DNA from: an uncultured Bdellovibrionales bacterium
GTDB lineage: Bacteria; Patescibacteriota; Minisyncoccia; Moranbacterales; GWC2-37-73
Assembly: GCA_964609855.1 (NCBI GenBank)
Contig: CAZSTB010000006.1
Span: forward strand, 365-64,364
DNA length: 64,000 bases
Reading direction: 5' to 3'
Shown: positions 20,071-56,021 of the stretch, one piece after another
Layout: each line of letters starts with the position of its first letter
Position numbering within the stretch: position 1 is the first letter of the stretch
Notes under the pieces: model-generated
What the model was told of the DNA's origin: nothing
Database searches by the model: none
Seen by the model: only the letters and a program-made list of their open reading frames with translations
Translations under genes and position numbers: made by a program

Positions 20071-20550
20071 ATGAAAAAATATTATAAAAAATTTAATAGC
20101 AATAGCGTTTTTTCAGCTAGCTTTAAGGTTGCATTAGTAGCTGTTTTTGCAGTTTTCTTGTTGACCTTGCCCCTTACTAGAATTGAAGCTGCTGAAAGTA
20201 TTGTTTCTTGTGGTAGATCAGATCAGAGCATGTGCACGCTGTGTGACATAATAAAGGGCATGAATATCATCATAAAATATTTGATGCAAATTTCTATTGG
20301 GGTGGCGCTTTTGGCTATAACTATCGGAGGTGTCATGTATATTATTTCTCCTGCTGATAAGGGAATGGTAGAAATGGGAAAAAAAGCGATGACCAACGCA
20401 TTTATCGGTTTCGCACTTATTTTTGCTGGATATTTGATTATAAATACAACTATTCAATATATCGGAACTAGACCTGGGATGGGCGTAAAAAGTGCGAATA
20501 GTACATTCCTATGGTCGAATTTTGATTGCAGCGCTCCTGCTGGAAAATAA
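20071..20550 (+). CDS. T4SS pilin-like (TrbC/VirB2-like) protein
   Basis: Signal peptide. C-terminal two-helix module with the loop motif MYIISPADKG...IGFALIFAGY. The same module is shared with paralogs at 39392-42616. Confidence 0.45.
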   Translation: MKKYYKKFNSNSVFSASFKVALVAVFAVFLLTLPLTRIEAAESIVSCGRSDQSMCTLCDIIKGMNIIIKYLMQISIGVALLAITIGGVMYIISPADKGMVEMGKKAMTNAFIGFALIFAGYLIINTTIQYIGTRPGMGVKSANSTFLWSNFDCSAPAGK

Positions 20551-20579: not shown

Positions 20580-21710
20580 ATGAAGAGTAAAAAGATTCTC
20601 GTATTAGCGGCACTTTATTTTTTAAGCGTATTTTTTGCCATAGATGATGCGAAAGCAGTCACAGAATGCACAAATAATCCGTCAATTTGTTCAGGTGGGA
20701 CCATATGCGCAGATGCTGGTTACGGACTCAAGACCTGTATTCAACCAAAAAATATTGGAAGCGCATGTAGTGAAAATGTAGAATGTGAGAGCGGAAATTG
20801 CGCAGATGCCGGTTATAATTTAAAAACATGTCAACTGGGAAGTGTTACTTTGCCTGCGAATGATTCCGATTTATGCAAAAGTTATAACATTAACTTCGCA
20901 TGTCGAAATGTTGATACTCTCTCTACATCAAGTGGTTGTCAAACTGGAAAATGTCCAGGAGCTGCCAATATTCAGTGTTGTCCCGAAAGCACTCCTCTTA
21001 AAGTGATTGCACCTATTGAAAATAGTTCGGAATGCTCAAATTTCAATGCCAATAATACTTGTACGAACATAAATACCTTGGCTAGCACCAGTGGTTGTCA
21101 AACTGGAAAATGTCCTGGAGCTGCTAATATTCAGTGTTGTCCTAAAAATGCTCCCTTGAAGCCAAATAATGGCTCAAATGAAACTGGTGGTTCAACAACC
21201 TTTACAAATCCACTCAAGTTTAATACTGTCGAATCTTTTCTGACCACTATCATGAGTGCGATCCAGCGGATCATTGTTTCGCTAGCGTTAGTGTTTATTG
21301 TAATCGGCGCATTGATGTATATATCTGCAGGGGCAAGTCCTGGTAATGCAGAAAAAGGAAAGGAGGCTATTACAATGGCTCTTGTTGGTTTAGCGATTGG
21401 AATTGCGGCGCCGTCCCTACTCAAAGAACTTGGATCTGTTTTAGGCTGGGGCGGTGTTGATAGTAGCGCCGTTGCTGGAGCTTTGACTTTATCACAGATT
21501 GCGATTAAGATTTTGAATTTCCTGTTAAGTATAACCGGTATTTTATCATTAATCATGTTGGTTATCGGAGCGATTATGTATCTTACTTCTGCAGGTGACT
21601 CGGATCGAATAAGTAAAGGCAAGGATATTTTCAAATATTCGTTGCTTGGTGTTATTATTGCAATGTCCGCAATGATTTTAGTACAGCAGATTGCGACGCT
21701 GTTTTCATAA
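20580..21710 (+). CDS. Cys-rich secreted protein with two tandem C-terminal T4SS pilin-like modules
   Basis: Repeats SSGCQTGKCPGAANIQCCP x2. Two modules with the xSAGxSx...KGK...IG motif. Confidence 0.45.
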   Translation: MKSKKILVLAALYFLSVFFAIDDAKAVTECTNNPSICSGGTICADAGYGLKTCIQPKNIGSACSENVECESGNCADAGYNLKTCQLGSVTLPANDSDLCKSYNINFACRNVDTLSTSSGCQTGKCPGAANIQCCPESTPLKVIAPIENSSECSNFNANNTCTNINTLASTSGCQTGKCPGAANIQCCPKNAPLKPNNGSNETGGSTTFTNPLKFNTVESFLTTIMSAIQRIIVSLALVFIVIGALMYISAGASPGNAEKGKEAITMALVGLAIGIAAPSLLKELGSVLGWGGVDSSAVAGALTLSQIAIKILNFLLSITGILSLIMLVIGAIMYLTSAGDSDRISKGKDIFKYSLLGVIIAMSAMILVQQIATLFS

Positions 21711-21801: not shown

Positions 21802-22251
21802 ATGTTAATCAGCGTTCCGCAATATATTGACGTAGAGGATAAAATCGTCGGCCCACTTACTGCAAAGCAATTGGGAATGTTTATCGGTCTTGGGGTAGCG
21901 ATGCTTGTTTTATGGAATGTTGTTCCTAAGCCGGTATTTTTTATCATAGCCTTGCCGATGTTGATCTTTGTAATCGCCCTGGCATTTTTTCGGCCATATG
22001 GACAACCATTGGGAAGTTTTTTACTTTTTGGACTTTTTTATTTCTTCAGACCAAAAGTTTATATTTGGAAAAGAATGCCACAAAATGTTATAAACATTCC
22101 GCAGAAAGAAAAAGTAGTAGATGTGAAAACGGAAGAAAAGCAAATTACGGCTCAGTCCTTGAGTGATTTGGCGCGGATGCTGGATAGTGAGGGTACTGCT
22201 CAAATTGAAGGAATAGAAGATATATTAAAAAAGGAACCTCGGAAGAAATAA
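21802..22251 (+). CDS. VirB3/PrgI-like small membrane protein
   Basis: 149 aa. GPLTAKQLGMFIGLG motif resembles VirB3 (xGLTRP). Two TM helices. Immediately upstream of the VirB4 ORFs. Confidence 0.4.
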   Translation: MLISVPQYIDVEDKIVGPLTAKQLGMFIGLGVAMLVLWNVVPKPVFFIIALPMLIFVIALAFFRPYGQPLGSFLLFGLFYFFRPKVYIWKRMPQNVINIPQKEKVVDVKTEEKQITAQSLSDLARMLDSEGTAQIEGIEDILKKEPRKK

Positions 22252-22295: not shown

Positions 22296-23054
22296 TTGAG
22301 CGATCTCAAACCTTATTTAAAAAAGTTAAGCTTATTCTCAAATAAATTTTGTTTAAACAAAAAAATGGAATCATTGCATTCAAATAGTCTGACAAGTGGT
22401 AGTACTGGCGGCCTTAGCACTCAGAAATATGTGGACGTAGAAGAGGTCAGAGATGGTGTTATCATGCTGAAGAACGGGTCAATGCGCGGCGTTCTTATGG
22501 TCTCGTCTATTAATTTTGATCTAAAAGCCTCTGAAGAACAAGATTCAATAATCAGCCAATATCAAAATTTTCTCAACTCCTTGGATTTTCCAATTCAAAT
22601 TGTCATTAGTTCGAGAAAACTGAATGTAAATCCTTATTTGGATTATTTGAAGAAAAAAGAAGCTGAGCTTTCAAATGAACTCTTAATCTTGCAACTTGGA
22701 GAATATAGAAATTTTATAAAAAGCTTAGCAGAGGTATCAAGTATTATGTCTAAGTATTTTTATGTTGTAGTTCCGTTTTATCCGGTAGAAAATACGAAAT
22801 CAGGAATATTGGACAGATTATTCGGCTCAACAAATTCTCAAATGGCGGTCTCAAGGCGGCGCGCGCTGTTTGATACCTATAAGAACCAGCTTTGGCAAAG
22901 ACTCGATCATGTAAGTGCTGGACTTGGGAGTACTGGAGTAAAAGTGACTGCACTTAAAACGGAGGAACTGATTGAACTTCTATATAATTCCTATAATCCC
23001 TCCACGCAGAGTAATACAATTATTAAGGATACCGATAAAGTTGAGTTGCGATAG
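22296..23054 (+). CDS. VirB4/TrbE N-terminal domain-like protein (possible split-gene part)
   Basis: VEEVRDGVIMLKNGSMRGVLMVSSINFDLKASEEQD resembles the CagE/TrbE/VirB N-terminal region. Separated from the ATPase ORF by 99 nt containing stops. Confidence 0.4.
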   Translation: MSDLKPYLKKLSLFSNKFCLNKKMESLHSNSLTSGSTGGLSTQKYVDVEEVRDGVIMLKNGSMRGVLMVSSINFDLKASEEQDSIISQYQNFLNSLDFPIQIVISSRKLNVNPYLDYLKKKEAELSNELLILQLGEYRNFIKSLAEVSSIMSKYFYVVVPFYPVENTKSGILDRLFGSTNSQMAVSRRRALFDTYKNQLWQRLDHVSAGLGSTGVKVTALKTEELIELLYNSYNPSTQSNTIIKDTDKVELR

Positions 23055-23153: not shown

Positions 23154-24977
23154 ATGTTTGGACAAAATAAAACTCAAAAACCAAAAGTTGAAACAAACGC
23201 AGTTCTTCAAAGTGAAGCGCTATATCAACGCGGAGTTGCAACTATTAAGGACCTGATAGCACCATCAGCAATGAAAATAGGTGCTGATAATCTGCAGATC
23301 GGCGAAACTTATGCTAGGACTCTGTTTATTGTTGCTTATCCAAGATATCTTCATACGAATTGGTTTTCTCCGATTATAAACATCGATTTTTCAATGGACA
23401 CATCCATGTTTGTGCACCCAATTGATACCTCAGAGATTTTGAAAAACCTGAGAAAAAGCTCAACACAGGTGCAATCGCAAATCCACATGGAGGAACAATC
23501 AGGAAAAATTCGCGATCCGATTTTGGAAACTGCCTTGCAGGATATTGAAGATTTGCGGGATAAATTAATGCAGGGAACTGAAAAGTTCTTCCGGTTTGGT
23601 TTGTATATTACCATTTATGGAAAAACGCTGGAAGAATTAAACAAAGCGAATCAGCAGATAGAATCTATTTTAGAGGCCCAGTTGGTGTACCTTAAGCCAG
23701 CGGTATTAAAGGTGGAGCAGGGCTTTGCTTCAACGTTGCCATTAGCGAATGATGAACTGGATGTTGCAAACAATCTTAACACCGCACCGCTTTCAACAAC
23801 ATTTCCATTCGTTTCAGCTGATCTCTCATCAAATGAGGGAATTCTTTATGGAATAAACCGTCATAATAACAGCTTGATTTTGTTTGATCGTTTCAAAATG
23901 GAAAATGCCAACATGGTTGTTTTTGCGAAGTCTGGAGGAGGTAAAAGTTATACCGTAAAATTAGAGATTTTCCGGTCACTGATGGTTGGTACGAATGTAA
24001 TTGTAATCGATCCTGAAAATGAATATAAATATCTTTGCGAAACAGTCGGGGGAACTTTTATTAAGCTATCTTTAAATTCTGCATTTCACCTTAACCCATT
24101 TGATCTTCCTAATGTCGGTGAGGATGAAGATCCTGAGGATGTATTACGTTCAAATATCGCTAGTCTTATCGGCTTGCTGCATATCATGCTTGGGGCAGTT
24201 ACTCCTGAAGAGGATTCGATTTTAGATATCGCAATTCGCGAAACTTATGCAATGAGAGACATTACGCCACAAAGTAATTTCAAATCCTTTAATTCCAGCT
24301 CTTTCCCTACGATGTCTGACCTATACTCGGTAATCAGAAATTCCGAAGGAGGCGAATCCGTCGCAAAACGTTTAGAGAAATACACGGAAGGTATTTTCGC
24401 TGGAGTGCTTAATCACACGACAAATGTGCAAATTTCCAATCAACTTGTAGTTTTCAATATTCGCGATCTTGAAGAACAGCTGAGACCGATTGCGATGTAT
24501 ACTATCTTGCAATTTATTTGGAATGAGATGCGCTCAACCTTGAAAAAAAGAATCGTGGTTGTCGATGAAGCATGGGTAATGATGCAGAATGATGATGCTG
24601 CCTCATTCCTCTTTGGAATTGCAAAGCGTTGTCGTAAATATTACACAGGTCTAACAACTATCACTCAGGATATTGCCGACTTCATGAGCTCACGCTATGG
24701 AAAGCCTATTGTAACAAACTCCTCGCTGCAATTATTACTAAGGCAATCTCCTGCTGCTATTGAAACCATTTCGGATACTTTTTACCTTACAGAGCAGGAA
24801 AAGTTTCTTTTACTTGAAAGTAATGTTGGAGAAGGAATTTTGTTTGCCGGAGCTAAGCATGTGGCAATCAAAGTCATCGCTTCTTATGCAGAAGATCAGA
24901 TTATTACTTCAGATCCTCGCCAGCTTGTAGAGATAGAACAAGCCAAGAAAGAATTTGATGAAGAAGAAGGCAACTAG
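23154..24977 (+). CDS. virB4: VirB4/TraE-family T4SS ATPase (Gram-positive type)
   Basis: Walker A AKSGGGKS, Walker B VVVDEAW. YPRYL...W motif upstream of the ATPase core. Confidence 0.8.
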   Translation: MFGQNKTQKPKVETNAVLQSEALYQRGVATIKDLIAPSAMKIGADNLQIGETYARTLFIVAYPRYLHTNWFSPIINIDFSMDTSMFVHPIDTSEILKNLRKSSTQVQSQIHMEEQSGKIRDPILETALQDIEDLRDKLMQGTEKFFRFGLYITIYGKTLEELNKANQQIESILEAQLVYLKPAVLKVEQGFASTLPLANDELDVANNLNTAPLSTTFPFVSADLSSNEGILYGINRHNNSLILFDRFKMENANMVVFAKSGGGKSYTVKLEIFRSLMVGTNVIVIDPENEYKYLCETVGGTFIKLSLNSAFHLNPFDLPNVGEDEDPEDVLRSNIASLIGLLHIMLGAVTPEEDSILDIAIRETYAMRDITPQSNFKSFNSSSFPTMSDLYSVIRNSEGGESVAKRLEKYTEGIFAGVLNHTTNVQISNQLVVFNIRDLEEQLRPIAMYTILQFIWNEMRSTLKKRIVVVDEAWVMMQNDDAASFLFGIAKRCRKYYTGLTTITQDIADFMSSRYGKPIVTNSSLQLLLRQSPAAIETISDTFYLTEQEKFLLLESNVGEGILFAGAKHVAIKVIASYAEDQIITSDPRQLVEIEQAKKEFDEEEGN

Positions 24978-25000: not shown

Positions 25001-25037
25001 TGGCGAATCAATTTTCAATTTTCAATTTTCAATTTTC
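25001..25037. repeat. tandem heptamer AATTTTC x5
   Basis: CAATTTTCAATTTTCAATTTTCAATTTTCAAC directly after the virB4 stop and a short palindrome TTCGCCAGCTGGCGAA. Confidence 0.6.
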
Positions 25038-25055
25038 AACGAGTCCATTTATTAC

Positions 25056-28347: not shown

Positions 28348-28710
28348 ATGATAAATTCATATAAAGACTTAATTGTTTGGCAAAAATCAAAGGATTTAGT
28401 CATTGAAATTTATAAAATTGTCGCTAATTTTCCTAAAGATGAAATTTATGGATTATCTTCCCAAATGCGCAGGTGTTCAATTTCAATACCATCAAATATC
28501 GCAGAGGGCAGATATAGGGGAACAAAAAAGGATTTCTTGCATTTTTTAAGAATTTCTTTTGGGTCAGGTGCTGAACTGGAAACACAGATATTAATTGCAA
28601 AGGAAATTTATGCTGATAGGGAAATTGATTTTGAAAAAGCTGAAAAATTATTAGAAGAAGTGATGAAGATGTTAAATGTTATGATTAAGAATTTAAATCC
28701 TAAAAGCTAA
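28348..28710 (+). CDS. four-helix-bundle protein (23S rRNA intervening-sequence protein family, TIGR02436)
   Basis: YKDLIVWQKSKDLVIEIYKI...SQMRRCSISIPSNIAEG...FLHFLRISFGS signature. Confidence 0.8.
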   Translation: MINSYKDLIVWQKSKDLVIEIYKIVANFPKDEIYGLSSQMRRCSISIPSNIAEGRYRGTKKDFLHFLRISFGSGAELETQILIAKEIYADREIDFEKAEKLLEEVMKMLNVMIKNLNPKS

Positions 28711-33358: not shown

Positions 33359-34435
33359 TTGCTTCATCTTGTTCGTAATTATTCAGCTTTTGCTGTTGTC
33401 GTTAGTAGTGCCCTGCTTGTTAGTGCCACCAATGTAGCTTCATCCGGAAAGGGTGCTGGAAGCTTCCTTTTTGGTTATTGGGATTCATCAGCTCAAGCCT
33501 CGGCTGCACGTAGCAAGATTAGCGGACAAGTTGATAAGAAAAATGATTTAGCTTTAGTGCCACTTTCTAAGGCAAGCACAGCAGTTGATCCTGGAGCTAA
33601 AGAAGAGGAAGTAACTCAAAATATTATTCAAGGTCAGGGGATCATGGCTGCGGCTGGTGGAGCTAGCCCGATGAAAGATCCTGAACAAGATGGTGGGGTT
33701 AAAATGTATATCGTTCAATCAGGCGATACGCTTGGATCGATTGCTGCGAAAAATGAAGTTTCCATCAACACGATTTTGTGGGCCAACGATATTGATAATG
33801 TCGATTCGATCATGCCTGGCGACACTTTGTTTATTTTGCCTGTGTCTGGAATTAAATATGTCATAAAGGATGGCGACAAGATAGATGCCATCGCTGCTAA
33901 GTTTAAATCAGAAAAGGATAAGATTATCGCCTTTAATGATCTTCCGGCAAACGGAGATTTGGAGGCGGGAAAAGAGATTGTTATTCCTGACGGACAGGGA
34001 GAAGCTCCGAAACCTCAAGTGCCTGCAGCTAGTCCATCGACGCTTATTGAAAAAAGACAGTATGCAAACGCCACTGGTGGAACTCCTGAAGTTTCTACGG
34101 GAAAAATATTAGGCGGAAAACCTGGAACCGGACATAGGTTCCCATATGGATATTGCACGTGGTATGTTGCGCAAAAAAGACATGTCCCTTGGGGTGGAAA
34201 TGCTGGAACATGGCTATATCATGCAAAGGCTAGTGGATATGCAACCGGAAGAACACCTAAAGTCGGATCGATCATGGTTACCACTGAAAATCGCTACTAC
34301 GGCCACGTCGCTTATGTGGAAAAAGTTTCCGGAGATACGATAACAGTGAGCGAGATGAATTATGCCGGTTTTGCAAAAGTTTCTCGTCGCACACTTTCAG
34401 CAAAGAGTCGCGCAATCAAGGGATTTGTATATTAG
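33359..34435 (+). CDS. LysM-LysM-CHAP domain peptidoglycan hydrolase (secreted)
   Basis: Two LysM repeats (YIVQSGDTLGSIA..., YVIKDGDKIDAIA...). C-terminal CHAP with a Cys (CTWYV) and a His (YGHVAYV). TTG start per the ORF track. Confidence 0.75.
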   Translation: MLHLVRNYSAFAVVVSSALLVSATNVASSGKGAGSFLFGYWDSSAQASAARSKISGQVDKKNDLALVPLSKASTAVDPGAKEEEVTQNIIQGQGIMAAAGGASPMKDPEQDGGVKMYIVQSGDTLGSIAAKNEVSINTILWANDIDNVDSIMPGDTLFILPVSGIKYVIKDGDKIDAIAAKFKSEKDKIIAFNDLPANGDLEAGKEIVIPDGQGEAPKPQVPAASPSTLIEKRQYANATGGTPEVSTGKILGGKPGTGHRFPYGYCTWYVAQKRHVPWGGNAGTWLYHAKASGYATGRTPKVGSIMVTTENRYYGHVAYVEKVSGDTITVSEMNYAGFAKVSRRTLSAKSRAIKGFVY

Positions 34436-36717: not shown

Positions 36718-37125
36718 ATGAGTAATAATTTGAGCGCATTGGAAGAATTTGATGCGCAAAGAAAAATTGAGATGCCGCATCTTTTGTATTCGGCAACTGA
36801 CCTGGTAGCGAAAAAAAATATCGCCTATGTTGTGTTGGCAAAAAAAGAAAAAGAGATACTGCTCATTAGTCCAGCTGGCTTCGGCGAGGCAGCTGTTGTC
36901 GCAGGCTTCAGCGAAAAAAATATTGAACATTTTGCCAAGTTTGCATCAAAGGAATGCAAAGAAAGAATGTTTGAAGTAATCAAGAATGATCTGCTTGCTA
37001 AGGATATTTGGGAAATCGCAGAGGCGATGGACGATGATTTAGGCAGAGATTCCAAGTCGCATCGCCAAAGAGTAAGAAAAGTGTTGCAATATATTTATAA
37101 TAATCAAACAGTTTTTCATTTTTGA
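36718..37125 (+). CDS. hypothetical protein
   Basis: 135 aa, no motif. Tightly packed after the virB6-like gene. Confidence 0.4.
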   Translation: MSNNLSALEEFDAQRKIEMPHLLYSATDLVAKKNIAYVVLAKKEKEILLISPAGFGEAAVVAGFSEKNIEHFAKFASKECKERMFEVIKNDLLAKDIWEIAEAMDDDLGRDSKSHRQRVRKVLQYIYNNQTVFHF

Positions 37126-39119
37126 TATCTATGGACTTTAATTTTGCGCAAAACAATTCAGCATCTCAAAAAACTGGTTCCTTGGAGCAGTCTTTTGTCG
37201 GCGTTGTGGAGAATGAAAAACAACGACTGGCGACTGGATATGCAGCTGTTGTTGAAGAAATTCAAGCAAAAAGAAACAAGGAAAATGCAGGTGCGCAAAT
37301 ATTTCCCGCTTCAGTTGCATCTTTACATCCTGATGTTGTTGATTTTTTACTAAATTTTGATTTGGTTTCAGTTTATGATGATATCGCCAAACAAAACAAC
37401 TTGGATGAGAAAGGCCGCAGTAGCTTGCCGCAAATAGTTTGGAAGCTTGTTAGAGAAGGAAATTGGAACGCCTTGGATGAAACGTTAGAAGCTAAAATTC
37501 CCTTGGTGCATTCCGTACATGTAAATGTCGCTAACCTTTTGCAGCAAAATATTTTAGCAAAAGTGAAAGCTCTGTCTGAAAAACCGGTTTCCAGAAAAGG
37601 TATTATCAGCGAAGCTACGAAGAAAATCGTAAGCATTCCGCTGAAGAAAGCTTTGCTTGATTATCCGAAACTTGGAGAGCAAAATGTGACAATCAGTCAG
37701 ATTGAGCTGAAATATTTTCCTACGCCTGTCAGGCCTTCGATTAAGAATTGGATTACAGACTTTCATGATCAGATGGGGGCAATTAAACATTCTCCAATTG
37801 ATCGCGGAAACTATTTGTTCCACAGCGAAAATGGAAAAAAACTTACCTCTCTGGAGCGGCAGAAGCTTTCAATGATTTTGAAAAGTTTAGATGAAGATAC
37901 GAATCTGGATATTGATGCTGAAGCGCAAGTCCTTATATTTGAAATAGAAAAACCGCAAATAAATCCAGTGGCGAATGATCGATATAAAACTGTGGTGAGT
38001 GATAATTTTACTGATGTGCAGAAAAACGTTCCAGCTGAACAGTTAATAAGTCGACCAGTATTGGATTTTGGACAAAGGCAGCAAACTATTGAGCAGGAAA
38101 AGCAGTCTGAAATAGAAAATAGTGAGGAATTACTAAAATCCCGCGAAGAAAAATTGAATAATCTTGGTAAATTTTTTGGCGAAAAAGCTGGCTTGCAGCC
38201 AGAAGTAAAAACGCCTGCGGATGATAACTTAGAACAGGTAGCTAAACCGCAAGTCAAGCCGTTGTCGTCAGAGCAGGCTACAGGCGGCCTTAAGGCTGCG
38301 TTAAATTTCTTTAAATTAAATAAAGTTAAAAATTCCAAATCGGAAGAAAGAGAAAACCAAGTTCCAACTGCGGAAATTATGCAAAAGGATTTATTCAAGT
38401 TGCCAACCTCGAAGCCGCAATTGGGGACTGAAGAATATAATGTAAGAAAAAGTTTTGTTGAGCAGAGTAATGTGGAAGAAAAAAAAGCTCAAGAGCTGCC
38501 GTTTCAAAGCGATATGATTTCAAATGTTAACAATGTAAAATTTTCAAACAGCGACAATATACATTTTTCATCGCCTCAGAAACTGCCTGCAGAGGAAAAA
38601 TTCGCCGCGCCTGCGAAAATGAGCGCCCCTAATTTTGCCTCCAACAGTATGGCATACGTTAGGCCTACAGCAACTTTCAAAGTTCAAGATGTTCCAGCTG
38701 TAGAGCCAGAAATTGTCACCCCTGCGCCAACTTTAGCAAGTCCGCAAATTAAAGCTGATTACGAGATGGCATCAAATTCAAGGATAAGTTCCACCTTGTC
38801 TCCCTCAACTACTATAAGCCGTCCAATTCCAGCTCCAATTCCAACTCCTATATCGGCGCCAATTCAGCAAGTAACTTCAATGACTGAACCAGTAGTTTCT
38901 CCAGTGCCAGTATTTTCTCCGATCGTTGATCTTAAGCGAGACTCAGCGCCAGTCCCCGTTGAAACAACTCAGCAAATTAGCAGCGAAGAGCATTCCATTA
39001 AAAAGGCGACTCCTGCAATCGCAAGAAATCCATTCAGAATCGTTCCAAGAAATTACTCAGAGGGAATTGAAGATGAAAAAATTTCAGCTCCAAAAAATGT
39101 TGTTAATCTAAAAGAATAA
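37122..39119 (+). CDS. hypothetical large protein with low-complexity Pro/Ser-rich C-terminus
   Basis: 665 aa. ATGA overlap with the previous gene. No TM and no catalytic motif. Confidence 0.5.
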   Translation: MISMDFNFAQNNSASQKTGSLEQSFVGVVENEKQRLATGYAAVVEEIQAKRNKENAGAQIFPASVASLHPDVVDFLLNFDLVSVYDDIAKQNNLDEKGRSSLPQIVWKLVREGNWNALDETLEAKIPLVHSVHVNVANLLQQNILAKVKALSEKPVSRKGIISEATKKIVSIPLKKALLDYPKLGEQNVTISQIELKYFPTPVRPSIKNWITDFHDQMGAIKHSPIDRGNYLFHSENGKKLTSLERQKLSMILKSLDEDTNLDIDAEAQVLIFEIEKPQINPVANDRYKTVVSDNFTDVQKNVPAEQLISRPVLDFGQRQQTIEQEKQSEIENSEELLKSREEKLNNLGKFFGEKAGLQPEVKTPADDNLEQVAKPQVKPLSSEQATGGLKAALNFFKLNKVKNSKSEERENQVPTAEIMQKDLFKLPTSKPQLGTEEYNVRKSFVEQSNVEEKKAQELPFQSDMISNVNNVKFSNSDNIHFSSPQKLPAEEKFAAPAKMSAPNFASNSMAYVRPTATFKVQDVPAVEPEIVTPAPTLASPQIKADYEMASNSRISSTLSPSTTISRPIPAPIPTPISAPIQQVTSMTEPVVSPVPVFSPIVDLKRDSAPVPVETTQQISSEEHSIKKATPAIARNPFRIVPRNYSEGIEDEKISAPKNVVNLKE

Positions 39120-39297
39120 AAGGTATTGTATCCCAGGGCAGAGCTCTGGACTCCCTTGGGCCCACGCAGCCCGTCTCGCCCGAGGCTTTGCCGAGGGGGA
39201 CAGAGCTGTGAGGTGCCTGCCCTGTCTACCGATAGGCAGGCGGTAGGCAGGGAAATGGAATATTAATTTTCATTTCGCTCGCTTCGTTTGATAATAA
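39113..39297 (-). repeat. structured intergenic repeat / candidate ncRNA, diverged copy C (GC-rich core)
   Basis: Minus-strand 5' module AAACGAAGCGAGCGAAATGAAAAT... and 3' end ...AATACCTTTTATT match copies A and B. The 120-nt core is about 65% GC. Confidence 0.55.
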
Positions 39298-39391
39298 AAC
39301 AATATCTTTGATTTGAGATTTTTTATCAAGTGTTTGCAAGGGAGAAAATCGACTGCTTGAGCGAGAAAGGTGCTTTAAGTTAAATATAAGA

Positions 39392-39676
39392 TTGGAAAGT
39401 ATGCTTGAATTCATAAATATAGCACAGGCCGGAATTATTAGTGATGCACCCAGTGTTTCGAGTCTGGGAATTAAGATTTTAAATTTTTTGTTGTCAGTAG
39501 TTGGATTTTTTGCTATAATTTCTTTAGTGTTGGCAGGGATAAAATACTTTTTTGCACTTGGTGATAAGAAGCAAATTGAAAATGCAAAAAATGCCGCGAC
39601 GGCTGCCGTTTGGGGAATTGCGCTTGCGATGGGAGGAATGATCCTGATAAGGTTTATTGGACAATTTTTTCAATAG
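39392..39676 (+). CDS. T4SS pilin-like (TrbC/VirB2-like) small protein
   Basis: 94 aa. Two-helix module with KYFFALGDKKQIENAKN...IG motif. Confidence 0.45.
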   Translation: MESMLEFINIAQAGIISDAPSVSSLGIKILNFLLSVVGFFAIISLVLAGIKYFFALGDKKQIENAKNAATAAVWGIALAMGGMILIRFIGQFFQ

Positions 39677-39754
39677 CACTAGCGAATGATAATATAACGA
39701 GATTTTGGGAAAAAAATATATAAAAAATAAAAACTAGGAAAGGAGGTGTAATTT

Positions 39755-40108
39755 ATGAACATTGTTAAAAAATTTGTATACGGAATCGCTTCAATTATCG
39801 TGGTGTTGCCGACAACCGTGGGAGCTCAACTTCAGACACCTGAAGGAACAGGTCTTCCAGCGGGAAGTGTGATAAATATCATAACCAATGGAATGAATTA
39901 TCTTTTGATTCTCGTTGGTGTTCTTGGAGTTATCGGATTCGTTATCGCTGGTATCATTTATTTGACTGCAGCTGGCGACGAAGATCAGATAGAAAGAGGA
40001 AAGAGAACTATGATCAATTCTATCATTGGAATCATCGTAGCGCTTTTGGGAATCATTGTTTTGACAGCCGTAAAAAGTATGCTTGGGGGAACTGATAAAA
40101 CTTTCTAG
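39755..40108 (+). CDS. T4SS pilin-like small protein
   Basis: Strong RBS AGGAAAGGAGGT. Motif IYLTAAGDEDQIERGKR...IIG. Confidence 0.5.
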   Translation: MNIVKKFVYGIASIIVVLPTTVGAQLQTPEGTGLPAGSVINIITNGMNYLLILVGVLGVIGFVIAGIIYLTAAGDEDQIERGKRTMINSIIGIIVALLGIIVLTAVKSMLGGTDKTF

Positions 40109-40129
40109 TTCTGCAAGTTACATTTTGTA

Positions 40130-40166
40130 CAAGCAAAAAACAACCTTAAGGGTTGTTTTTTGCTTG
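40130..40166 (+). terminator. rho-independent terminator
   Basis: CAAGCAAAAAACAACC-TTAA-GGGTTGTTTTTTGCTTG. Confidence 0.6.
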
Positions 40167-40328
40167 CGTAAAAATTATAAGACCTATATTTATATATACA
40201 CTTTTACTGAAAATATGCTATAATGAATATGAAAATATCTTAAAAATTTATTCTTCCGTTGTTTTTTGATCAGCTACGCTTGCTATTGAATTAGAAAGAT
40301 AGCTTTTGAAAAAAAATAAAAAATAAAA

Positions 40329-40784
40329 ATGAAAGTACAAAATAAGATTCTGTCACTAATTGTTTTCTCATTTGTCTTTTTTGCGCAAGTCCTGCCAGTA
40401 CTTGCTGGTCCAGAATGGAATGCATCAGTCGGGCCAGATGGAAATGTGGGTTTTCAAATAGGTACACAACAGGGTCTTAATGCTCTCAATGGAAATAATG
40501 CTGACGCAGCAATGAATAATCCATATGGCTTGCCGGGTGGAAGTATTTTGGATATAATTTCAAACCTCTTGTTTTGGCTGCTGGCTATTTTTTCCGTACT
40601 AGGAATCATTGGCTTTTTGATTTCTGGAATCTTGTATCTTCTGGCTGGTGCGGATGAGGATAATGCAAAAAAGGGAAAAGAGGGCATGAAAGCTTCAATT
40701 ATTGGAATCATTGTCGGTCTTTCAGGTTATGTTATCATGCAGGCAGTTGGAATATTTTTACGCGGAGATACGACAATGTTCTAA
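40329..40784 (+). CDS. T4SS pilin-like protein
   Basis: Signal peptide. Motif LYLLAGADEDNAKKGKE...IIG. Promoter GAAAATATGCTATAAT at 40210-40226. Confidence 0.5.
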   Translation: MKVQNKILSLIVFSFVFFAQVLPVLAGPEWNASVGPDGNVGFQIGTQQGLNALNGNNADAAMNNPYGLPGGSILDIISNLLFWLLAIFSVLGIIGFLISGILYLLAGADEDNAKKGKEGMKASIIGIIVGLSGYVIMQAVGIFLRGDTTMF

Positions 40785-40840
40785 AGTAGATTGATTAGGT
40801 TTGATTTAGATAAATACAGTAATCAGTTTTTATAACAAAA

Positions 40841-41710
40841 ATGAAAAATAAAAGCGCATATTTATTTGTTGGCATTTTCCTATTCTCAGGCTTACTTTTT
40901 TTTGGAGAAAGTGAAAAAGCTAACGCTCAAGCATTTTCTGGATCATATTCATACTCTGAATGCAAAAGTGATGGTGGAAGTGAGGCGTATTGCAGTCAAT
41001 TTAGCGGTGCACCTCAATCTTCCACAAATATCAGCAATGCATCCGCAGGAAGTTGCCGTTTCAATAGTGATTGCGGAAATAATTTTACGTGTTATCAGGA
41101 TACCTGTATGGATGATGCAACCTATCAGGAAAATGTTTCTTGGATTAATCGTACTGGTAACGCCGTGTCGCAGGTACTAACTCCTGGTGGGTCAATATTT
41201 GATGATGGTACGAATTCTACCTCTTCTTCATCAGGTGGGGAGCTAACGATGATTGCTTATGATATTAATGGTAACCCTGTTTTTGATCCTGACCAATATG
41301 CTGGAGCAGGAAATACGAATTCTAATATTGTTAACAATAACAACAACAGTAATAATACTGGATCCGGCAATACTAACGGAATTCAAACAGCAAAATGCAG
41401 CGGGGCAAATTTTACGGAAATCGGGGGAATCTGTTTTCCTGTAGACACAGGCATGCCGAATCCAGAATTCGGAATAGTCCAGATTATTGGCAATCTCTTT
41501 TCCTGGTTAATGGGTTTATTTTCCGTGCTTTCCTTGGCGGCTTTTGTGATATCCGGAATTCAGTATGTCACATCCGCTGGAGATTCTGGCCAAGCAGAGA
41601 CTGCTAAAAAGAACGCCCTAAATGCTGTTTTAGGAATTATTGTGGGTTTCTCTGGTTTTGTTATTGTTCAAGCTGTGAATTATGCACTAGAGGGGCAAGG
41701 TTTCTTTTAA
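40841..41710 (+). CDS. Cys-rich secreted protein fused to C-terminal T4SS pilin-like module
   Basis: Motif QYVTSAGDSGQAETAKKNA...GII. N-terminal Cys-rich region and an Asn-rich tract. Confidence 0.5.
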   Translation: MKNKSAYLFVGIFLFSGLLFFGESEKANAQAFSGSYSYSECKSDGGSEAYCSQFSGAPQSSTNISNASAGSCRFNSDCGNNFTCYQDTCMDDATYQENVSWINRTGNAVSQVLTPGGSIFDDGTNSTSSSSGGELTMIAYDINGNPVFDPDQYAGAGNTNSNIVNNNNNSNNTGSGNTNGIQTAKCSGANFTEIGGICFPVDTGMPNPEFGIVQIIGNLFSWLMGLFSVLSLAAFVISGIQYVTSAGDSGQAETAKKNALNAVLGIIVGFSGFVIVQAVNYALEGQGFF

Positions 41711-41734
41711 GATAGTTTTTATTGGAAGAATTTT

Positions 41735-42616
41735 ATGAAATTAAAAAAACTTTTATTTCTTAGCTTATTTCTTAGCTTATTTTTTGTTGGAAATGGCGTA
41801 GAAGCCGTAACTGAGTGCGAAACCGCCGGCGGAATTTGCAGTATTTTTTCGAATATGACTTGCGAATCCAGGCATTTATTGGGAAAGGAAGATATGGTAA
41901 CCACAAATCTCTCGTGCAACAATAGTGCAGCAAGTTGTTGCATGCCAAAAGTTGCCACTCCTGCAATAACAGCACCAGTTACAACACCAACCACACCAAC
42001 TACAACTCCAGTTACAACCCCAGTTACAGCCCCAACCATTAACACTCCAACTACAAATACCCCAACTGTTAATCCTCCAGTTACGGCTAATGCAAATGCT
42101 TGTTCAGATCTTGAGTATTTAGGTCGCGATGGAAATTGTTATCCCAAGGAGAATCTAAATATAGAAAATGGCAATTTATGTTCCGATATTGAGTATCTAG
42201 GTCTCGACGGAAATTGCTACCCAAGGGAAAACTTAAACATTGTAAATGAAAATAATAACACTTTCCCCGGTGTGCCTAGTGGCGGCGCTCAGACTGCCAA
42301 ATGCGGCAATGGCTTCTATGAGAAAGGAAATGTTTGTTTTCCAACACAAACGGGACTGCCAAGTCCAGAAAACGGTGTAGTTCAAATTCTCAGTAACCTT
42401 TTTTCCTGGTTAATGGGTTTATTTACCATACTTTCGTTGGCAGCTTTCACGGTTTCTGGCATTCAATATGTAATTTCTGCTGGAGATTCAGGTTTGGCTG
42501 AAACTGCCAAGAAAAACGCAGTCAATTCAATTATTGGAATTGCAGTGGGACTTTCTGGATTTATCATCGTACGGGCCATAAATGCGGCACTTACTGGGCA
42601 GGGTTTTTTCTTTTAG
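41735..42616 (+). CDS. Cys-rich, Thr/Pro-linker secreted protein fused to C-terminal T4SS pilin-like module (paralog of 40841-41710)
   Basis: Internal tandem duplication CSDLEYLGRDGNCYPKENLNIENGN / CSDIEYLGLDGNCYPRENLNIVNEN. PTTPTTTPVTTPV linker. Motif QYVISAGDSGLAETAKKNA. Confidence 0.5.
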   Translation: MKLKKLLFLSLFLSLFFVGNGVEAVTECETAGGICSIFSNMTCESRHLLGKEDMVTTNLSCNNSAASCCMPKVATPAITAPVTTPTTPTTTPVTTPVTAPTINTPTTNTPTVNPPVTANANACSDLEYLGRDGNCYPKENLNIENGNLCSDIEYLGLDGNCYPRENLNIVNENNNTFPGVPSGGAQTAKCGNGFYEKGNVCFPTQTGLPSPENGVVQILSNLFSWLMGLFTILSLAAFTVSGIQYVISAGDSGLAETAKKNAVNSIIGIAVGLSGFIIVRAINAALTGQGFFF

Positions 42617-42619
42617 CGA

Positions 42620-42700
42620 TTGACTTTGAAACAAAAACGTGCTAAACTACGTATAGATAGATGAGAGTATGGATTCGCTGGAAAGCGAATCTTTTTCTTT
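42620..42700 (+). promoter_or_regulatory. promoter TTGACT-N17-TGCTAAACT followed by leader hairpin GGATTCGCT/AGCGAATC plus U-tract
   Basis: Direct inspection, about 130 nt upstream of nusA. Confidence 0.45.
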
Positions 42701-47141: not shown

Positions 47142-47145
47142 GGCA

Positions 47146-47263
47146 GGAATTAGGAATTAGGAATTAGGAATTAGGAAAATTCAAAATAAAAAACACCATC
47201 AAGGTGTTTTTTATTTTCTCTGAATTTTGCTACAACCTACAACCTAATTCCTAATGCCTAGGA
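47146..47263. repeat. GGAATTA x4 tandem heptamers, inverted partial copy, enclosing a bidirectional terminator
   Basis: GGAATTAGGAATTAGGAATTAGGAATTAGG ... AACACC-ATCAA-GGTGTT ... CCTAATTCCTAATGCCTAGG. Confidence 0.5.
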
Positions 47264-51553: not shown

Positions 51554-51741
51554 TTGTATATGGAGTTCGCAGGGATTCGAACGGGCAGAAGCTAAGCAAG
51601 ATGTTGTTCAGCAGGACAGCATCGCAGTGTGCGTCGATGAATGCGACCATAGAAGCATTCAGCGCTGCCCAGGGCAAGGAAATTGTGAGCGACGGCGAAC
51701 AAGTGACGAGGAAATCCCTGCCTCTGCGCCCCGACCATGTG

Positions 51742-51898: not shown

Positions 51899-52093
51899 AT
51901 GGCTTGGGGAAAATTAACTTACTTTTTGGATATAGATATGACAGTAGAAAAATATAAACAGGCTTGGGAAAAATTCCAAAATAAAATGGCTGAACTTCGC
52001 AAGAGACGTCATGAAATTTTGGCAAGCATTTCTGAAAAATTAGATCAGCAGCATATGGAAAAATTAAGAAAAAAATTAAATGGCGATGAATAA
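51899..52093 (+). CDS. hypothetical small coiled-coil protein
   Basis: 64 aa. Overlaps the start of the next gene by 14 nt. Confidence 0.35.
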   Translation: MAWGKLTYFLDIDMTVEKYKQAWEKFQNKMAELRKRRHEILASISEKLDQQHMEKLRKKLNGDE

Positions 52094-53687
52094 AGAACAA
52101 TTCAAATCAACTGAAAATGCTGAACAACAAGAAGCGCATGAAACTCATGAAGCTCTAAAAAGCGTTGAAAAATCAGCTGCTGAAATTGGTGTGCAGATGA
52201 TTGAGCGATCGGATAAGGAAGTCGTTGATTTTCAGCAAGAAGGTATTACTGAAATTAATCAAATGGAAGCGAGAGCTGAAAAAGACGGACTACAGGTTGA
52301 TAAAGAAGATAATGAGGAATTGCTAGTGTTAAATCATGAAGCTGCGATTGCGAAAAAAGAATTGGAGTCTGAAATTGATAGTCACGGTGAAAAGGAAAAC
52401 TTAGTGGAGAAATCATATTCAAAAGAAGACATAATTAAAGAATTTTCAGTAGAACATTTGAAATCCATTTCAACTGAAGATTACATTAAATTACTTCAAC
52501 GATTTCCGGGTGAAATGTTAACACATGTGACTAGGCGTGGCATTCGAGATCATGCAGATTTTGGAAATCATAAGGCTGGATTAGGCGAATATCATAGCTC
52601 ATTTCAAACCATTCTTCAAAAGAAGGAGCTTAGATCAGCTCTCGGTATAACTTTGCAAGAGTCTTCAGAGGAAGATGCTGTGTCAAAATTTTTAAAATTG
52701 AATGAATGTGATTCAAGAAATACTGCACTAGGGAGAATAAGCGGCGGTTTTGATACTGGATTAATAGGTGATCCTAGGGCATTTGCTGATTCAAGCGCGG
52801 TACATCTCGCAGCAGAATCTGTTGCAGATAGTACTTACGGAGGAGAAAGTGGTAATGAGATATTCTTTGCTTTCCCATCGGTTATGATTGCTTCTCAATA
52901 TGAATTTTCTGGAAATTTATCTGCAAGTGGTGCAAATAATGACCAGTATGTTTGGCCAGAAATTGATAAGGGATTATCAGTCGATTCCGGTATTGCATTT
53001 ATTCCAGAGGACGCTAGAGTTAATCCTGAAAAAGGATCAAAATATGAGCTTGACCAAGAGAATAAAACAAAGCCAACTGAGGGTATACAAGAGGTACTAA
53101 ATGCTAGATTTGGCGACAAACCGGGTTTCGTACAGGCATTTATTCAAGAAAGCTATAAATATAATGACTTACCAGAAAACGAAAGGAATGACGCCATTGA
53201 GAAAATATTAGATGAATTTGAAGTTAAAGATGGTAAAGCAAGAGAACTATTGTCTGACAGTGGCCTTGTGGAAAAATTATCGGAAATATGGGGTTTGGAA
53301 AATGAAAAGATGGAATATGAAAAAATATTAACAACATATTTTCAAGAAAAAGGACTTAATCCTTATAAATTAGCTGAGAATCCTGTTTCTTCGAAAGAAT
53401 ATTGGGAGGATTACTTTCATAAAAATCCAGAATCACGTCCAAAACATATAGTTTATTATTCAGGAGGAAATCCTACGAAAGCCATGAATCAATGGAGGGA
53501 GCAAAATGGAATCACAATAAAAGACGGTAGACCGGATATGGGCTTTTCTGAAAATGAAGCTTCTCGTGAGGAAAAAAATAAAAATGATACACAACAGCGT
53601 TTTGTTTCGATAGCTCGCAGCATAGTCGATAAGCACTTTCCAACAACTGCTCAAAATCCTTCTTATGAATATGATTGGCGCAAATAA
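52080..53687 (+). CDS. hypothetical acidic protein
   Basis: 535 aa, no recognisable motif. Confidence 0.5.
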   Translation: MAMNKEQFKSTENAEQQEAHETHEALKSVEKSAAEIGVQMIERSDKEVVDFQQEGITEINQMEARAEKDGLQVDKEDNEELLVLNHEAAIAKKELESEIDSHGEKENLVEKSYSKEDIIKEFSVEHLKSISTEDYIKLLQRFPGEMLTHVTRRGIRDHADFGNHKAGLGEYHSSFQTILQKKELRSALGITLQESSEEDAVSKFLKLNECDSRNTALGRISGGFDTGLIGDPRAFADSSAVHLAAESVADSTYGGESGNEIFFAFPSVMIASQYEFSGNLSASGANNDQYVWPEIDKGLSVDSGIAFIPEDARVNPEKGSKYELDQENKTKPTEGIQEVLNARFGDKPGFVQAFIQESYKYNDLPENERNDAIEKILDEFEVKDGKARELLSDSGLVEKLSEIWGLENEKMEYEKILTTYFQEKGLNPYKLAENPVSSKEYWEDYFHKNPESRPKHIVYYSGGNPTKAMNQWREQNGITIKDGRPDMGFSENEASREEKNKNDTQQRFVSIARSIVDKHFPTTAQNPSYEYDWRK

Positions 53688-54584: not shown

Positions 54585-56021
54585 ATGGGACCAAAAGATA
54601 TTAACACCGAATATAAGATTTCACAGTCGCATGAAGAAATGGAGGCTGGTTTTGATATTTCTCAGTCTGAGTGCGGAAAGGGTGAGGTTTTTAATAAACC
54701 TCATTTGGTAACTGAAAAAGAAATTCAGGATATTAAAAAAGCAAAACAAGAGAAAGACGCCAAGAATTTGGAAGTTATCAAAATAATGGAGGAAAAGTTA
54801 CTGGATGCAAATCTTGGAAAAATAAGAATTAGGGATATTAAGAAATTTGCTAGAAACGAATATAAGTATGTTTGTGACAATATTAAGAATGAACATGGCG
54901 ATATAGACTGGGAATATGTTGAAGAAAGATTAAGCTTTGAGCTTCCAAAAAATAAGCACTTTTTAACATTTGAATTCGCAGTTAATGAATTAAGAGATAA
55001 GTTGATATCAGATAACCTATTTAGTTTTACTCCAGTTTATGTTGAAAGAAATTGTCCCAAGGCGTATGGTTTTTTCAAACGAAACATCAAAGATGCCGAA
55101 GGAAAAATTGATTGGGGTAAAATTAAAGAAGAGTTGCACTTAGAAGCGCCAGATGGGTATTATGAATCGAAGTGCATAGAGAGTTTAAACAAAGCTATTT
55201 TAGAGACAGCTAAGCCAGTTACTACGATAACAGATTTACACAATCATTATTTTGCTATTTTTCAAGATGTGAAAGCATACTTTCCAGATCAAAAAGGAAC
55301 TATTGATTGGCCGAAAGTCGTTCCTTGTCTTTCTGCAGAAGCTCGCAAAAAATTAAAATTGCCACCCCCTGCACTAACAATGGAATCTGCATTAAAGAAA
55401 CTTGATGATATATTTAAAAGTGTACCTGCCGGAAGAAAAATAACATTTCAACAAATTAAAATGCAAAACCGGGCTCTTTATGCTTTTTTGTTGTTAAATT
55501 TTAAGGATGTTAAAGGCGGTGTTGATTGGAAATTGGTGTCTGAGCAATCAGGTATTGATTTTGATGATAAATTCTTACCTCCTAAAAATCACAAGCGTTC
55601 AACACCAGAGCAACAGTATGAGAATAATGAAGAAATGCAAAAGGCAATTGGTGATAATAAAAAATATTTATATACTTTTTTGCAATCTGATCCAGGGCGA
55701 GAATTTGAAAAACGAAATGAGATTTGTACGGTTCTGATAAACTTGGCGAAAAAAGGCAATAAATCAGCTGAGAATGAGATTATAAATTTAATTTCTTATT
55801 TAGCCGATAGGTGGGTGGAAACAATTCCAAATTTTGAGGTATGGAAATATCATAAGGATCGAGAACTAGAAATAATTAGACGTTGTATATATAATTTTGA
55901 GCCTAAGGTGCCCTTTGTAGGTTATGTGTATAAAACATTAAAAATGGCATCTCTTGGCTTGGAAAGAAGAACTGAAATTGAATACAATGATGGAGTAAGG
56001 ATAAGGCATGCAACTAAATAA
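54585..56021 (+). CDS. hypothetical protein with four internal (D/G)xIDW...V repeats
   Basis: GDIDWEYVEERL, GKIDWGKIKEEL, GTIDWPKVVPCL, and GGVDWKLVSEQS spaced about 60-70 aa apart. Confidence 0.5.
   Translation: MGPKDINTEYKISQSHEEMEAGFDISQSECGKGEVFNKPHLVTEKEIQDIKKAKQEKDAKNLEVIKIMEEKLLDANLGKIRIRDIKKFARNEYKYVCDNIKNEHGDIDWEYVEERLSFELPKNKHFLTFEFAVNELRDKLISDNLFSFTPVYVERNCPKAYGFFKRNIKDAEGKIDWGKIKEELHLEAPDGYYESKCIESLNKAILETAKPVTTITDLHNHYFAIFQDVKAYFPDQKGTIDWPKVVPCLSAEARKKLKLPPPALTMESALKKLDDIFKSVPAGRKITFQQIKMQNRALYAFLLLNFKDVKGGVDWKLVSEQSGIDFDDKFLPPKNHKRSTPEQQYENNEEMQKAIGDNKKYLYTFLQSDPGREFEKRNEICTVLINLAKKGNKSAENEIINLISYLADRWVETIPNFEVWKYHKDRELEIIRRCIYNFEPKVPFVGYVYKTLKMASLGLERRTEIEYNDGVRIRHATK

Follow-up and report, generated by a model that had tools for sequence, protein, structure and literature searches.

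We analysed a window of 64,000 nt from contig CAZSTB010000006.1 (the window is the whole stretch of DNA, with positions counted from its first letter), in which seven genes of a type IV secretion system (T4SS) locus encode proteins with a common two-helix module. These genes, named here by their start coordinates as 20071, 20580, 39392, 39755, 40329, 40841 and 41735, had been described in the original prediction as an expanded family of pilin-like paralogs, several of them fused to Cys-rich ectodomains with internal repeats. All seven were found as open reading frames (ORFs) of the + strand at the predicted positions, and they carry eight copies of the module (Table 1). They are split over two chromosomal T4SS sub-clusters about 10 kb apart.

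Seven pilin genes and their shared module

The Pfam family PF18895 (T4SS_pilin, VirB2-like) matched all seven genes, with E values from 4.7e-17 to 7.4e-6. Six of the seven scored above the cutoff of the family, which is 26.6 bits (29.1–62.3 bits), and 39392 lay 0.2 bits below it; the score of 62.3 bits belonged to 20580, where the match fell into two stretches. At the level of sequence, membership of the seven genes in PF18895 is established. Run against the 653 six-frame ORFs of the window, a hidden Markov model (HMM) built from the eight modules retrieved these seven genes and no others; the best of the remaining ORFs had E=0.13. In leave-one-out HMMs each module scored 43–85 bits, whereas none of 200 composition-matched shuffles exceeded 11.3 bits. 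The alignment and HMM that the original prediction had proposed as a check thus gave a similarity far above chance, and this similarity is not an artefact of hydrophobic composition.

The loop motif reported for the module was confirmed. The eight-module alignment, with the consensus Y..SAGD.G.AE.GK....NA.IGI, has Y36, K50 and G59 as invariant residues. Hydropathy analysis of the pilins showed a hydrophobic N-terminal segment and two transmembrane helices. In AlphaFold2 (AF2) models the helical hairpins had predicted local distance difference test (pLDDT) scores of about 80–92; the helices span residues 214–248/252–286 in 41735 and 217–249/254–287 plus 304–336/341–375 in 20580. These four long helices of 20580, all within the range of 80–92, and the two Pfam stretches agree with its description as a protein of two tandem modules. 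The module is C-terminal in general, as had been noted, but not strictly so in 20071, in which a tail of about 30 aa with one Cys follows it. Inspection of the translations revealed Sec-type signal peptides with AxA-like sites in six of the seven proteins. For 39392, the orthologue in the syntenic locus L001 (described below) begins at an ATG equivalent to position 39401, which may be the true start codon. A (T/Y)G(L/M)P motif stands directly before helix 1 in four of the five pilins of the second sub-cluster, hereafter the array, and is at least 90% conserved in large pilins. The module alignment of 48 large pilins contained 14 invariant columns.

Distant homology of this pilin set to VirB2 is likely. 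An hhalign comparison with the VirB2 proteins of Agrobacterium and Acetobacter placed helix 1, the loop and helix 2 in register (P=0.0015), with a loop about 8 residues longer in the module than in VirB2. Orthologues of 20580, which are 55–59% identical to it in local alignments covering only 45–48% of its length, scored 31–50 bits on PF04956 (TrbC/VirB2; cutoff 27.9), and the same family matched 3 of the 48 large pilins (best E=6e-4). Sub-threshold matches to NCBIfam NF045849, a pilin-like conjugal transfer protein of the integrative and conjugative element (ICE) of Mycoplasma, were found in four of the seven proteins (15–30 bits, cutoff 40). The best of these was 39755, for which nearly the whole 80-residue model was covered at E=4.2e-7, below the curated cutoff.

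The term pilin-like is therefore appropriate in the sense of VirB2/TrbC-like pilins of a T4SS, in view of the seven PF18895 matches and the T4SS neighbours, but not in the sense of type IV pilus pilins. Identity as type IV pilins or pseudopilins was rejected: the G-F/M-xxx-E class III signal is absent, the conserved part is C-terminal and consists of two helices, and no type IV pilus family of Pfam was matched. Identity as bacteriocins or holins was rejected as well, on the leave-one-out scores and because no bacteriocin family of Pfam was matched; a match to bacteriocin-like peptides had been named in the original prediction as the case that would speak against it.

A metagenome scan gave 80 loci beyond L001, and the module HMM identified 271 pilin ORFs in them. 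In more than 20 metagenomic loci the same order was observed, namely a pilin of about 90 aa, one of about 117 aa, one of about 150–170 aa and then one large Cys-rich pilin, which across loci has 200–530 aa and 3–28 Cys. The median identity of same-position modules between 17 non-identical loci was 53%, 72%, 64% and 56% for positions 1–4, respectively, as compared with a median of 37% between modules of different positions within one locus. Since same-position identity exceeds between-position identity, the paralogues are old, with separate orthologues for each. The double-module pilin stands directly next to this array in other lineages; at least 119 double-module homologues of 20580 were found, mostly in Moranbacteria, and a pilin of about 190 aa resembling 20071 precedes the double pilin in loci L054 and L061. 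The seven genes are six old subunit classes with a conserved gene order. An expanded family in the sense of a recent and variable expansion is not what we found, because the order is kept and positional orthologues are the closer relatives. Only the pair of 40841 and 41735 looks lineage-specific: two large pilins in one locus are unusual, most relatives having one, and the modules of the two are 70.6% identical. This suggests a lineage-specific duplication, probably followed by replacement of the ectodomain.

Locus L001 (contig CAZAJN010000078.1) is syntenic with the window and contains genes for UvrD, XerC, a LysM-CHAP protein, VirB6, a 561-aa protein, pilins of 93, 117 and 164 aa, a large pilin of 472 aa and NusA. 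Identity between the two is 85% for NusA, 84% for the CHAP hydrolase and 81.5% for UvrD, and 46% for VirB6, 34% for the counterpart of the 561-aa protein (665 aa in the window) and 53–68% for the small pilins. In the large pilin the module is 55% identical, and the ectodomain is about 30% identical with a different module content. A search of genome contigs with VirB6 found two loci only, L001 among them. The L001 contig comes from a bin labelled 'uncultured Bdellovibrionales'. It has probably been mis-binned, because it is syntenic with the Moranbacteria window and 82–85% identical to it in NusA, UvrD and CHAP.

Ectodomains and variation between strains

The three genes for which N-terminal Cys-rich domains had been predicted, 20580, 40841 and 41735, encode 20, 8 and 12 Cys, all of them N-terminal to the module. 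The Cys count of this N-terminal part is even in 44 of 53 and in 95 of 119 homologues, which fits extracytoplasmic disulfides. A MdbA/VKOR pair for disulfide formation is enriched in the Candidate Phyla Radiation (CPR) (bioRxiv 10.1101/335083). The ectodomains of the 48 large pilins matched no Pfam family and gave only sub-threshold NCBIfam matches, and the ectodomain of 41735, used alone as the query, retrieved only itself among 5.8e9 proteins (E<=1e-3). At position 4, the length of the ectodomain varies between 68 and 403 aa from locus to locus, and the median identity is 30%. These ectodomains are mosaics of small disulfide modules without a Pfam family.

Analysis of 41735 and 40841 revealed both the Thr/Pro linker of the former (about 41951–42085) and the Asn-rich tract of the latter (41312–41374). 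The tandem duplication described for 41735 is also real (42101–42248, 1.9 copies, 80% identity), but its period is 78 nt, that is 26 aa and not 25. The 26-aa repeats lie at 42089–42241 (42101–42248 by Tandem Repeats Finder) and have protein-level repeat scores far above shuffles. In the AF2 model each of them forms a disulfide-stapled beta-hairpin, with strands at 127–129/135–137 and 153–155/161–163. A further hairpin, C190–C201 (42302–42337; AF2 strands 194–197/200–203), directly precedes the module. Of 53 homologues, 40 carry this pre-module element, C-x9-12-CFP, whose conservation in the alignment is 90% or more. In the homologues, the C..Y.GRDG.CYP hairpin and a CC..GGYWYN..C module are each present in 0–3 copies.

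In 20580, the repeat at the DNA level was located at 20914–20995 and 21073–21154, with 82% identity and a spacing of 159 nt. At the protein level, aa 89–140 match aa 142–193 with a score of 184 (shuffles 38.6 +/- 8.1). Each of these units contains a six-Cys domain of about 35 aa with the consensus C-x5-9-G-x-C-x5-7-C-x5-7-G-x-CPG-x2-NI-x-CC; the AF2 pLDDT is 92–94 over aa 100–140 and about 70 for aa 90–99. We also identified a second repeat pair, absent from the original prediction, in which aa 30–53 match aa 63–84 with a score of 68 (shuffles 20.7 +/- 3.9). This C..C..CADAGYxLKTC pair is present in the PF18895 pilins P0194 and P0196 as well.

A HMMER scan of 1.84e9 representative proteins with the 20580 ectodomain found 27 proteins, most of them secreted and not pilins. 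In the secreted non-pilin proteins (among P0193–P0218) the six-Cys unit occurs in 2–21 tandem copies, and its fusion partners include Phage_lysozyme2, Amidase_2, Peptidase_M23 with GH19, Tae4, an RNase, a papain protease and others; P0193, with 21 copies, has no Pfam family at all. The unit itself has no Pfam model, and a PDB search with its profile gave one conotoxin at chance level (E=3.6). Its Cys pattern is presumably similar to that of CLIP domains, with six Cys ending in CC. The CLIP family (PF12032) did not match 20580 at E<=0.1, and the match of one relative, P0201, was borderline (20.0 bits, equal to the cutoff of 20, at E=7.9e-4, with no single stretch passing). Since the six-Cys unit is recurrently paired with enzymes that attack other cells, this co-occurrence suggests a module for envelope binding or targeting.

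Strain variation was studied by comparing the window with locus L003, at 96.5% nucleotide identity. With a single exception, the amino-acid substitutions are N-terminal to the two-helix hairpin. The distal half of the 40841 ectodomain (hypervariable segment in Table 1) contains 49 of the 105 mismatches as well as two indels, a deletion of 15 nt and an insertion of 3 nt, and the density of mismatches there reaches 28 per 150 nt, as compared with 0–8 in adjoining and outside windows. These changes are mostly at third codon positions without adenine bias, and the Asn tract shows a net 4-codon indel. Synonymous divergence (dS) was 0.41 in the 40841 ectodomain (aa 30–200) and 0.025 in nusA. We read the segment as a probable import of a divergent allele. 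A diversity-generating retroelement was considered for it and rejected, as there is no reverse transcriptase among the scanned ORFs, no second copy within 39300–42700 and no adenine bias. The ratio of nonsynonymous to synonymous divergence (dN/dS), calculated from small counts, was 0–0.05 in modules and 0.17–0.18 in ectodomains. Pilin variation is confined to the ectodomains, and the module is constrained.

T4SS neighbourhood and adjoining features

The first sub-cluster consists of 20071, 20580, a PrgI/VirB3-like gene, a gene for a 252-aa protein, virB4 and a gene for a small membrane protein. The second consists of genes for a LysM-CHAP protein and a VirB6/TrbL-like protein, two family-less genes, the five array pilins and a terminator-like hairpin, and is followed by nusA. 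Housekeeping genes lie between and around the two (ComM-like, KsgA, UvrD, IF-2, RbfA, NusA, trigger factor, ClpP and RNase Y). Among the scanned ORFs of at least 100 aa across the 64-kb window, we found no coupling protein, relaxase or reverse transcriptase. The VirB4 protein shares a 90% identity cluster with VirB4/TraC proteins of Candidatus Moranbacteria, and the NCBI names of the pilin homologues read 'pilin [Candidatus Moranbacteria]'. The source organism is a genome of Candidatus Moranbacteria (Patescibacteria).

Table 1. Features of the two T4SS sub-clusters in the window
Coordinates	Strand	Feature	Details
20071–20550	+	Pilin class A, 159 aa	Signal peptide; 3 Cys; one PF18895 module at aa 66–123, E=1e-6
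20580–21710	+	Double-module pilin, 376 aa	Signal peptide; 180-aa ectodomain; PF18895 hairpins at aa 217–287 and 304–375
20667–20831	+	Two copies of the pilin-associated Cys module	aa 30–53 and 63–84 of 20580; C..C..CADAGYxLKTC
20844–21158	+	Two 52–53-aa units, each with a six-Cys domain	aa 89–140 and 142–193 of 20580
21802–22251	+	PrgI/VirB3-like T4SS membrane protein	PF12666, E=1.5e-8
22296–23054	+	252-aa protein with TraC/VirB4 N-terminal similarity	PF11130, E=0.045, weak
23154–24977	+	VirB4-type ATPase	PF19044, 1e-28; AAA_10; CagE_TrbE_VirB
33359–34435	+	LysM-CHAP cell-wall hydrolase, VirB1-like in role	CHAP 4.4e-19; LysM 7.7e-19; syntenic in L001
34593–36704	+	Extended VirB6/TrbL-like polytopic membrane protein, 703 aa	PF04610, E=3.3e-5, 24.2 bits (cutoff 25.9)
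36718–39119	+	Two family-less genes (135 aa, 665 aa) between virB6 and the pilin array	No Pfam or NCBIfam match
39392–39676	+	Small pilin, array position 1, about 90 aa	PF18895, 26.4 bits; without Sec signal peptide
39755–40108	+	Small pilin, array position 2, 117 aa	PF18895; most conserved class
40329–40784	+	Pilin, array position 3, 151 aa	PF18895; N-terminal region of about 45 aa without Cys
40841–41710	+	Large pilin, 289 aa	Signal peptide; 8-Cys ectodomain; Asn-rich tract; pre-module disulfide hairpin C186–C198; module
41100–41480	+	Hypervariable segment of the 40841 ectodomain (distal half, including the Asn tract)	Window compared with L003
41735–42616	+	Large pilin, 293 aa	Signal peptide; 6-Cys N-terminal module; Thr/Pro linker; repeats; hairpin; module at 42374–42592
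42671–42692	+	Terminator-like hairpin, 9-bp stem and T run	After the last pilin, before nusA; consensus match

Patescibacteria have been reported to possess chromosomal T4SSs resembling mating-pair formation type FATA (MPF-FATA), usually without a relaxase, and arrays of 2–11 VirB2-like genes were found in 383 assemblies (PMC12102498). The components that define such a system were found here, that is chromosomal VirB4, PrgI, VirB6 and VirB2-like proteins and, with weak support, TrsD. TrsD is a remote homologue of the N-terminal portion of VirB4 (PMC12102498), and the 252-aa protein, whose similarity to PF11130 is weak, is a candidate TrsD homologue because it is encoded directly upstream of virB4.

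The 665-aa protein (37122–39119) has a conserved N-terminal region and a long tail rich in Pro, Thr, Ser and Ala, and keeps a fixed place between virB6 and the array. Its counterpart in L001 (11754–13439 of that locus) is only 34% identical, as compared with about 85% for housekeeping proteins. The protein evolves fast and may be a further component of the T4SS or the cell surface. Between the 665-aa gene and the first pilin we observed a 137-nt island (39126–39262) with 63.5% GC in a window of 38.3% GC. The island, with a predicted fold of -67 kcal/mol (z = -2.4), may be a small structured RNA. An Rfam search of it gave no match even at E<=1; locus L029 contains a partial match of 45 nt (84%) at a distance of about 7 kb from its pilins. 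At the position of this island L001 has instead a gene of the 23S rRNA intervening-sequence protein family. Genes of this family (PF05635, weakly bAvd-like) were found at 28348–28710 of the window and 13446–13835 of L001, with no reverse transcriptase nearby. Their different positions in two syntenic genomes suggest a small gene that is mobile or often relocated.

Elsewhere in the window, two large ORFs of 535 and 478 aa (52080–53687 and 54585–56021) matched no Pfam family at E<=0.001. A GC-rich patch of about 57–58% (51611–51740), just downstream of tRNA-Pro and within a family-less ORF of 107 aa, may be a structured RNA and not a gene. A/T-rich tandem repeats with a period of 7 nt and 4–5 copies are present at many intergenic sites (for example 12245–12277, 25008–25039 and 47145–47177).

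Interpretation and comparison with known systems

We propose, with moderate confidence, that the seven proteins are VirB2-like subunits of a chromosomal monoderm-type T4SS and form a heteromeric set for a pilus or stalk, in which minor pilins bear the adhesins. Their topology resembles that of VirB2 and TraA: all except 39392 are Sec-exported, and the hairpin is held in the membrane so that its two ends face outwards and its charged loop inwards. The body of a short, wall-spanning pilus or stalk would be built from the small conserved classes (about 90, 117 and 150 aa, and 20071), and the double pilin 20580 and the large pilins 40841 and 41735 would join it through the same hairpin. These three would expose their disulfide-stapled ectodomains and, as minor or tip subunits, bind to the envelope of the host, and in this sense the earlier term tip-adhesin-like is plausible for the large members. 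Ectodomain modules may be swapped, duplicated and replaced by recombination between lineages, by which host specificity would be retuned while the assembly module stays fixed. From the 14 invariant columns, the dN/dS of 0–0.05 and the N-terminal position of the substitutions, we infer that the module is an assembly element and not a mere anchor. As no coupling protein or relaxase lies nearby, the T4SS more likely serves host contact or exchange than conjugation.

Several results weigh against this proposal. The window's own proteins did not match PF04956 at E<=0.1, and the hhalign probability was 16.7%. No solved pilin structure was found by sequence search or by Foldseek; a PDB search with the module profile gave chance-level matches (E>=0.08), none of them a pilin, and Foldseek returned generic helical bundles only. 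A pilus has been hypothesised for the T4SS of Patescibacteria but not seen (PMC12857230), and no organism has yet been seen to make one from PF18895 proteins, so that pilus formation by these proteins is something we infer. A tight VirB2-type helix would have no room for ectodomains of 180–260 aa on all of its subunits, and the large pilins would therefore be no more than minor components. Domain co-occurrence is the one line of evidence that the ectodomains bind anything, and the AF2 model of 41735 is poor over residues 21–119 (pLDDT <50). Positive selection on the ectodomains found no support, as dN/dS, from small counts, is below 1 everywhere.

A wider proposal is that the T4SS filament carries its own adhesins. 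It would consist of a six-class set in which a fused dimer and one or two terminal pilins bear swappable binding modules, some of them shared with secreted wall-attacking enzymes. The fused pilins would replace VirB5 or PrgB, and the ectodomain repertoire would set which host envelope is recognised, in Moranbacteria and probably in other Patescibacteria. We put this forward tentatively, as possible rather than probable.

The proteins could instead be membrane-anchored surface proteins, in which the hairpin is an anchor or docks to the T4SS complex, for example to VirB6, no filament is made and the Cys-rich domains are ordinary adhesins or wall binders. Such an arrangement is consistent with the strong hydrophobicity of the hairpin, the generic bundles returned by Foldseek and the steric awkwardness of large ectodomains in a VirB2-type helix; no pilus of the family has been observed, and the literature calls it a possibility (PMC12857230). 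However, an anchor would need neither the 14 invariant columns and the low dN/dS of the module nor six positional classes kept over long distances. Moreover, pilin arrays are tightly linked to T4SS genes, and both the pilin genes and the T4SS are essential to Southlakia (PMC10633639). We consider this explanation doubtful; should the large pilins prove to be ordinary membrane proteins, the present work would amount to no more than routine annotation within a known family. Pilins of the VirB2 family are synthesised as long-leader precursors. If the N-terminal regions were cleaved like the leaders of TraA, TrbC and VirB2, Cys-rich proteins would be released, possibly to bind the wall or to act on the host in the manner of defensins or CLIP proteins. 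The conserved (T/Y)G(L/M)P before helix 1 could be a processing site, and the six-Cys unit occurs elsewhere in secreted enzymes and toxins, with the borderline CLIP match in one relative. But neither a protease gene nor a recognisable cleavage motif was identified, ordinary Sec signal peptides already stand at the extreme N-terminus, and the C-x9-12-CFP hairpin is contiguous with the module in a way that suggests a fixed neck, which makes such a pro-region unlikely.

Variation of the repeats offers another explanation. The original prediction had suggested that they could support recombination or slippage, and interchangeable pilin paralogues might then undergo phase-like or antigenic variation. 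Repeats at the DNA level do exist, the copy number of the hairpin and the six-Cys unit varies from 0 to 3 among distant homologues, the Asn tract differs between strains by the indel described, and variation of multi-copy VirB2 has been proposed for Bartonella and Anaplasma (PMC12102498). We nevertheless judge this quite improbable, and the suggestion was not upheld: about two copies at 80–82% identity are poor substrates for slippage, and the copy numbers of the 26-aa and 53-aa repeats are the same in L003 as in the window, and likewise in the 90% cluster mates. In addition, the paralogues are not interchangeable, each having a conserved position and orthologues, and the hotspot between strains consists of ordinary substitutions biased to third codon positions. 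It might also be argued that these are unrelated two-helix peptides, such as bacteriocins, holins or small membrane proteins, alike by hydrophobic composition alone. Short hydrophobic hairpins are prone to spurious similarity, and weak Pfam side matches include Cyt_bd_oxida_II, TctB and others. The leave-one-out scores, the match of all seven to the curated PF18895, with no bacteriocin family, and the conserved linkage to VirB4, VirB6 and PrgI effectively refute this, and we give it hardly any credence.

Much of the uncultured diversity of bacteria belongs to the Patescibacteria, whose members live attached to their hosts. The T4SS, including the pilin array, is essential for the epibiotic lifestyle in the one species tested, Southlakia, in which neither a coupling protein nor a relaxase was recognised (PMC10633639). 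The present locus offers candidates for the host-recognition determinant, namely a fixed heteromeric set with variability limited to the ectodomains of particular members, in which a module known from secreted wall-degrading enzymes is reused. The six-Cys extracellular repeat domain is unannotated and widespread.

The PF18895 family and its arrays in Patescibacteria are already known. The locus is similar to the arrays of Southlakia epibionticum ML1 (SEML1_0006–0019) and of PMC12102498 in its PF18895 proteins, its tandem divergent pilins beside VirB4, PrgI and VirB6, its chromosomal location and its monoderm-type T4SS without a relaxase or coupling protein nearby. Identity within the array, at about 37%, comes near the published values (average 25%, maximum 54%). 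The published pilins are small and were described as 'structurally conserved but sequence-divergent', with versatility in host range suggested. The present locus differs from the published arrays in its fixed class order, its fused double pilin, its Cys-rich ectodomains of 70–400 aa and its two sub-clusters. The class order, the double pilin and the ectodomain pilins that share a module with secreted hydrolases are not found in the cited literature on Patescibacteria.

The VirB2/TrbC/TraA proteins (PF04956) of the T-pilus and F-pilus likewise begin with a signal peptide and continue into a helix-loop-helix hairpin of comparable length. However, they are 70–80 aa when mature, have no extra domains, leave adhesion to a separate protein (VirB5, CagL or TraN), and belong to diderm T4SSs, whereas the host here is a monoderm. 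The Mycoplasma ICE proteins Mbov_0395 and MMCAP2_0565 (NF045849), which show sub-threshold matches to four of the seven proteins, belong to a monoderm MPF-FATA T4SS, but are small and have no ectodomain. The multi-copy VirB2/VirB5 variants of Bartonella Trw and of the Anaplasma and Rickettsia T4SSs resemble the present locus in having tandem VirB2 paralogues in a non-conjugative T4SS for host interaction, with diversification of binding proposed. Those copies arose by recent amplification of one small pilin, whereas the classes here are old, fixed and unequal, with variability in the fused ectodomains. As a working analogy only, distinct subunits encoded together, one of them enlarged at the tip, are known from GspH-I-J-K of the type II secretion system, from the minor pilins of type IV pili and from FimH, in which a pilin domain is fused to a binding domain. 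These have no kinship in sequence or fold with the present proteins and use other assembly machinery, and the class III signal of type IV pilins is absent here.

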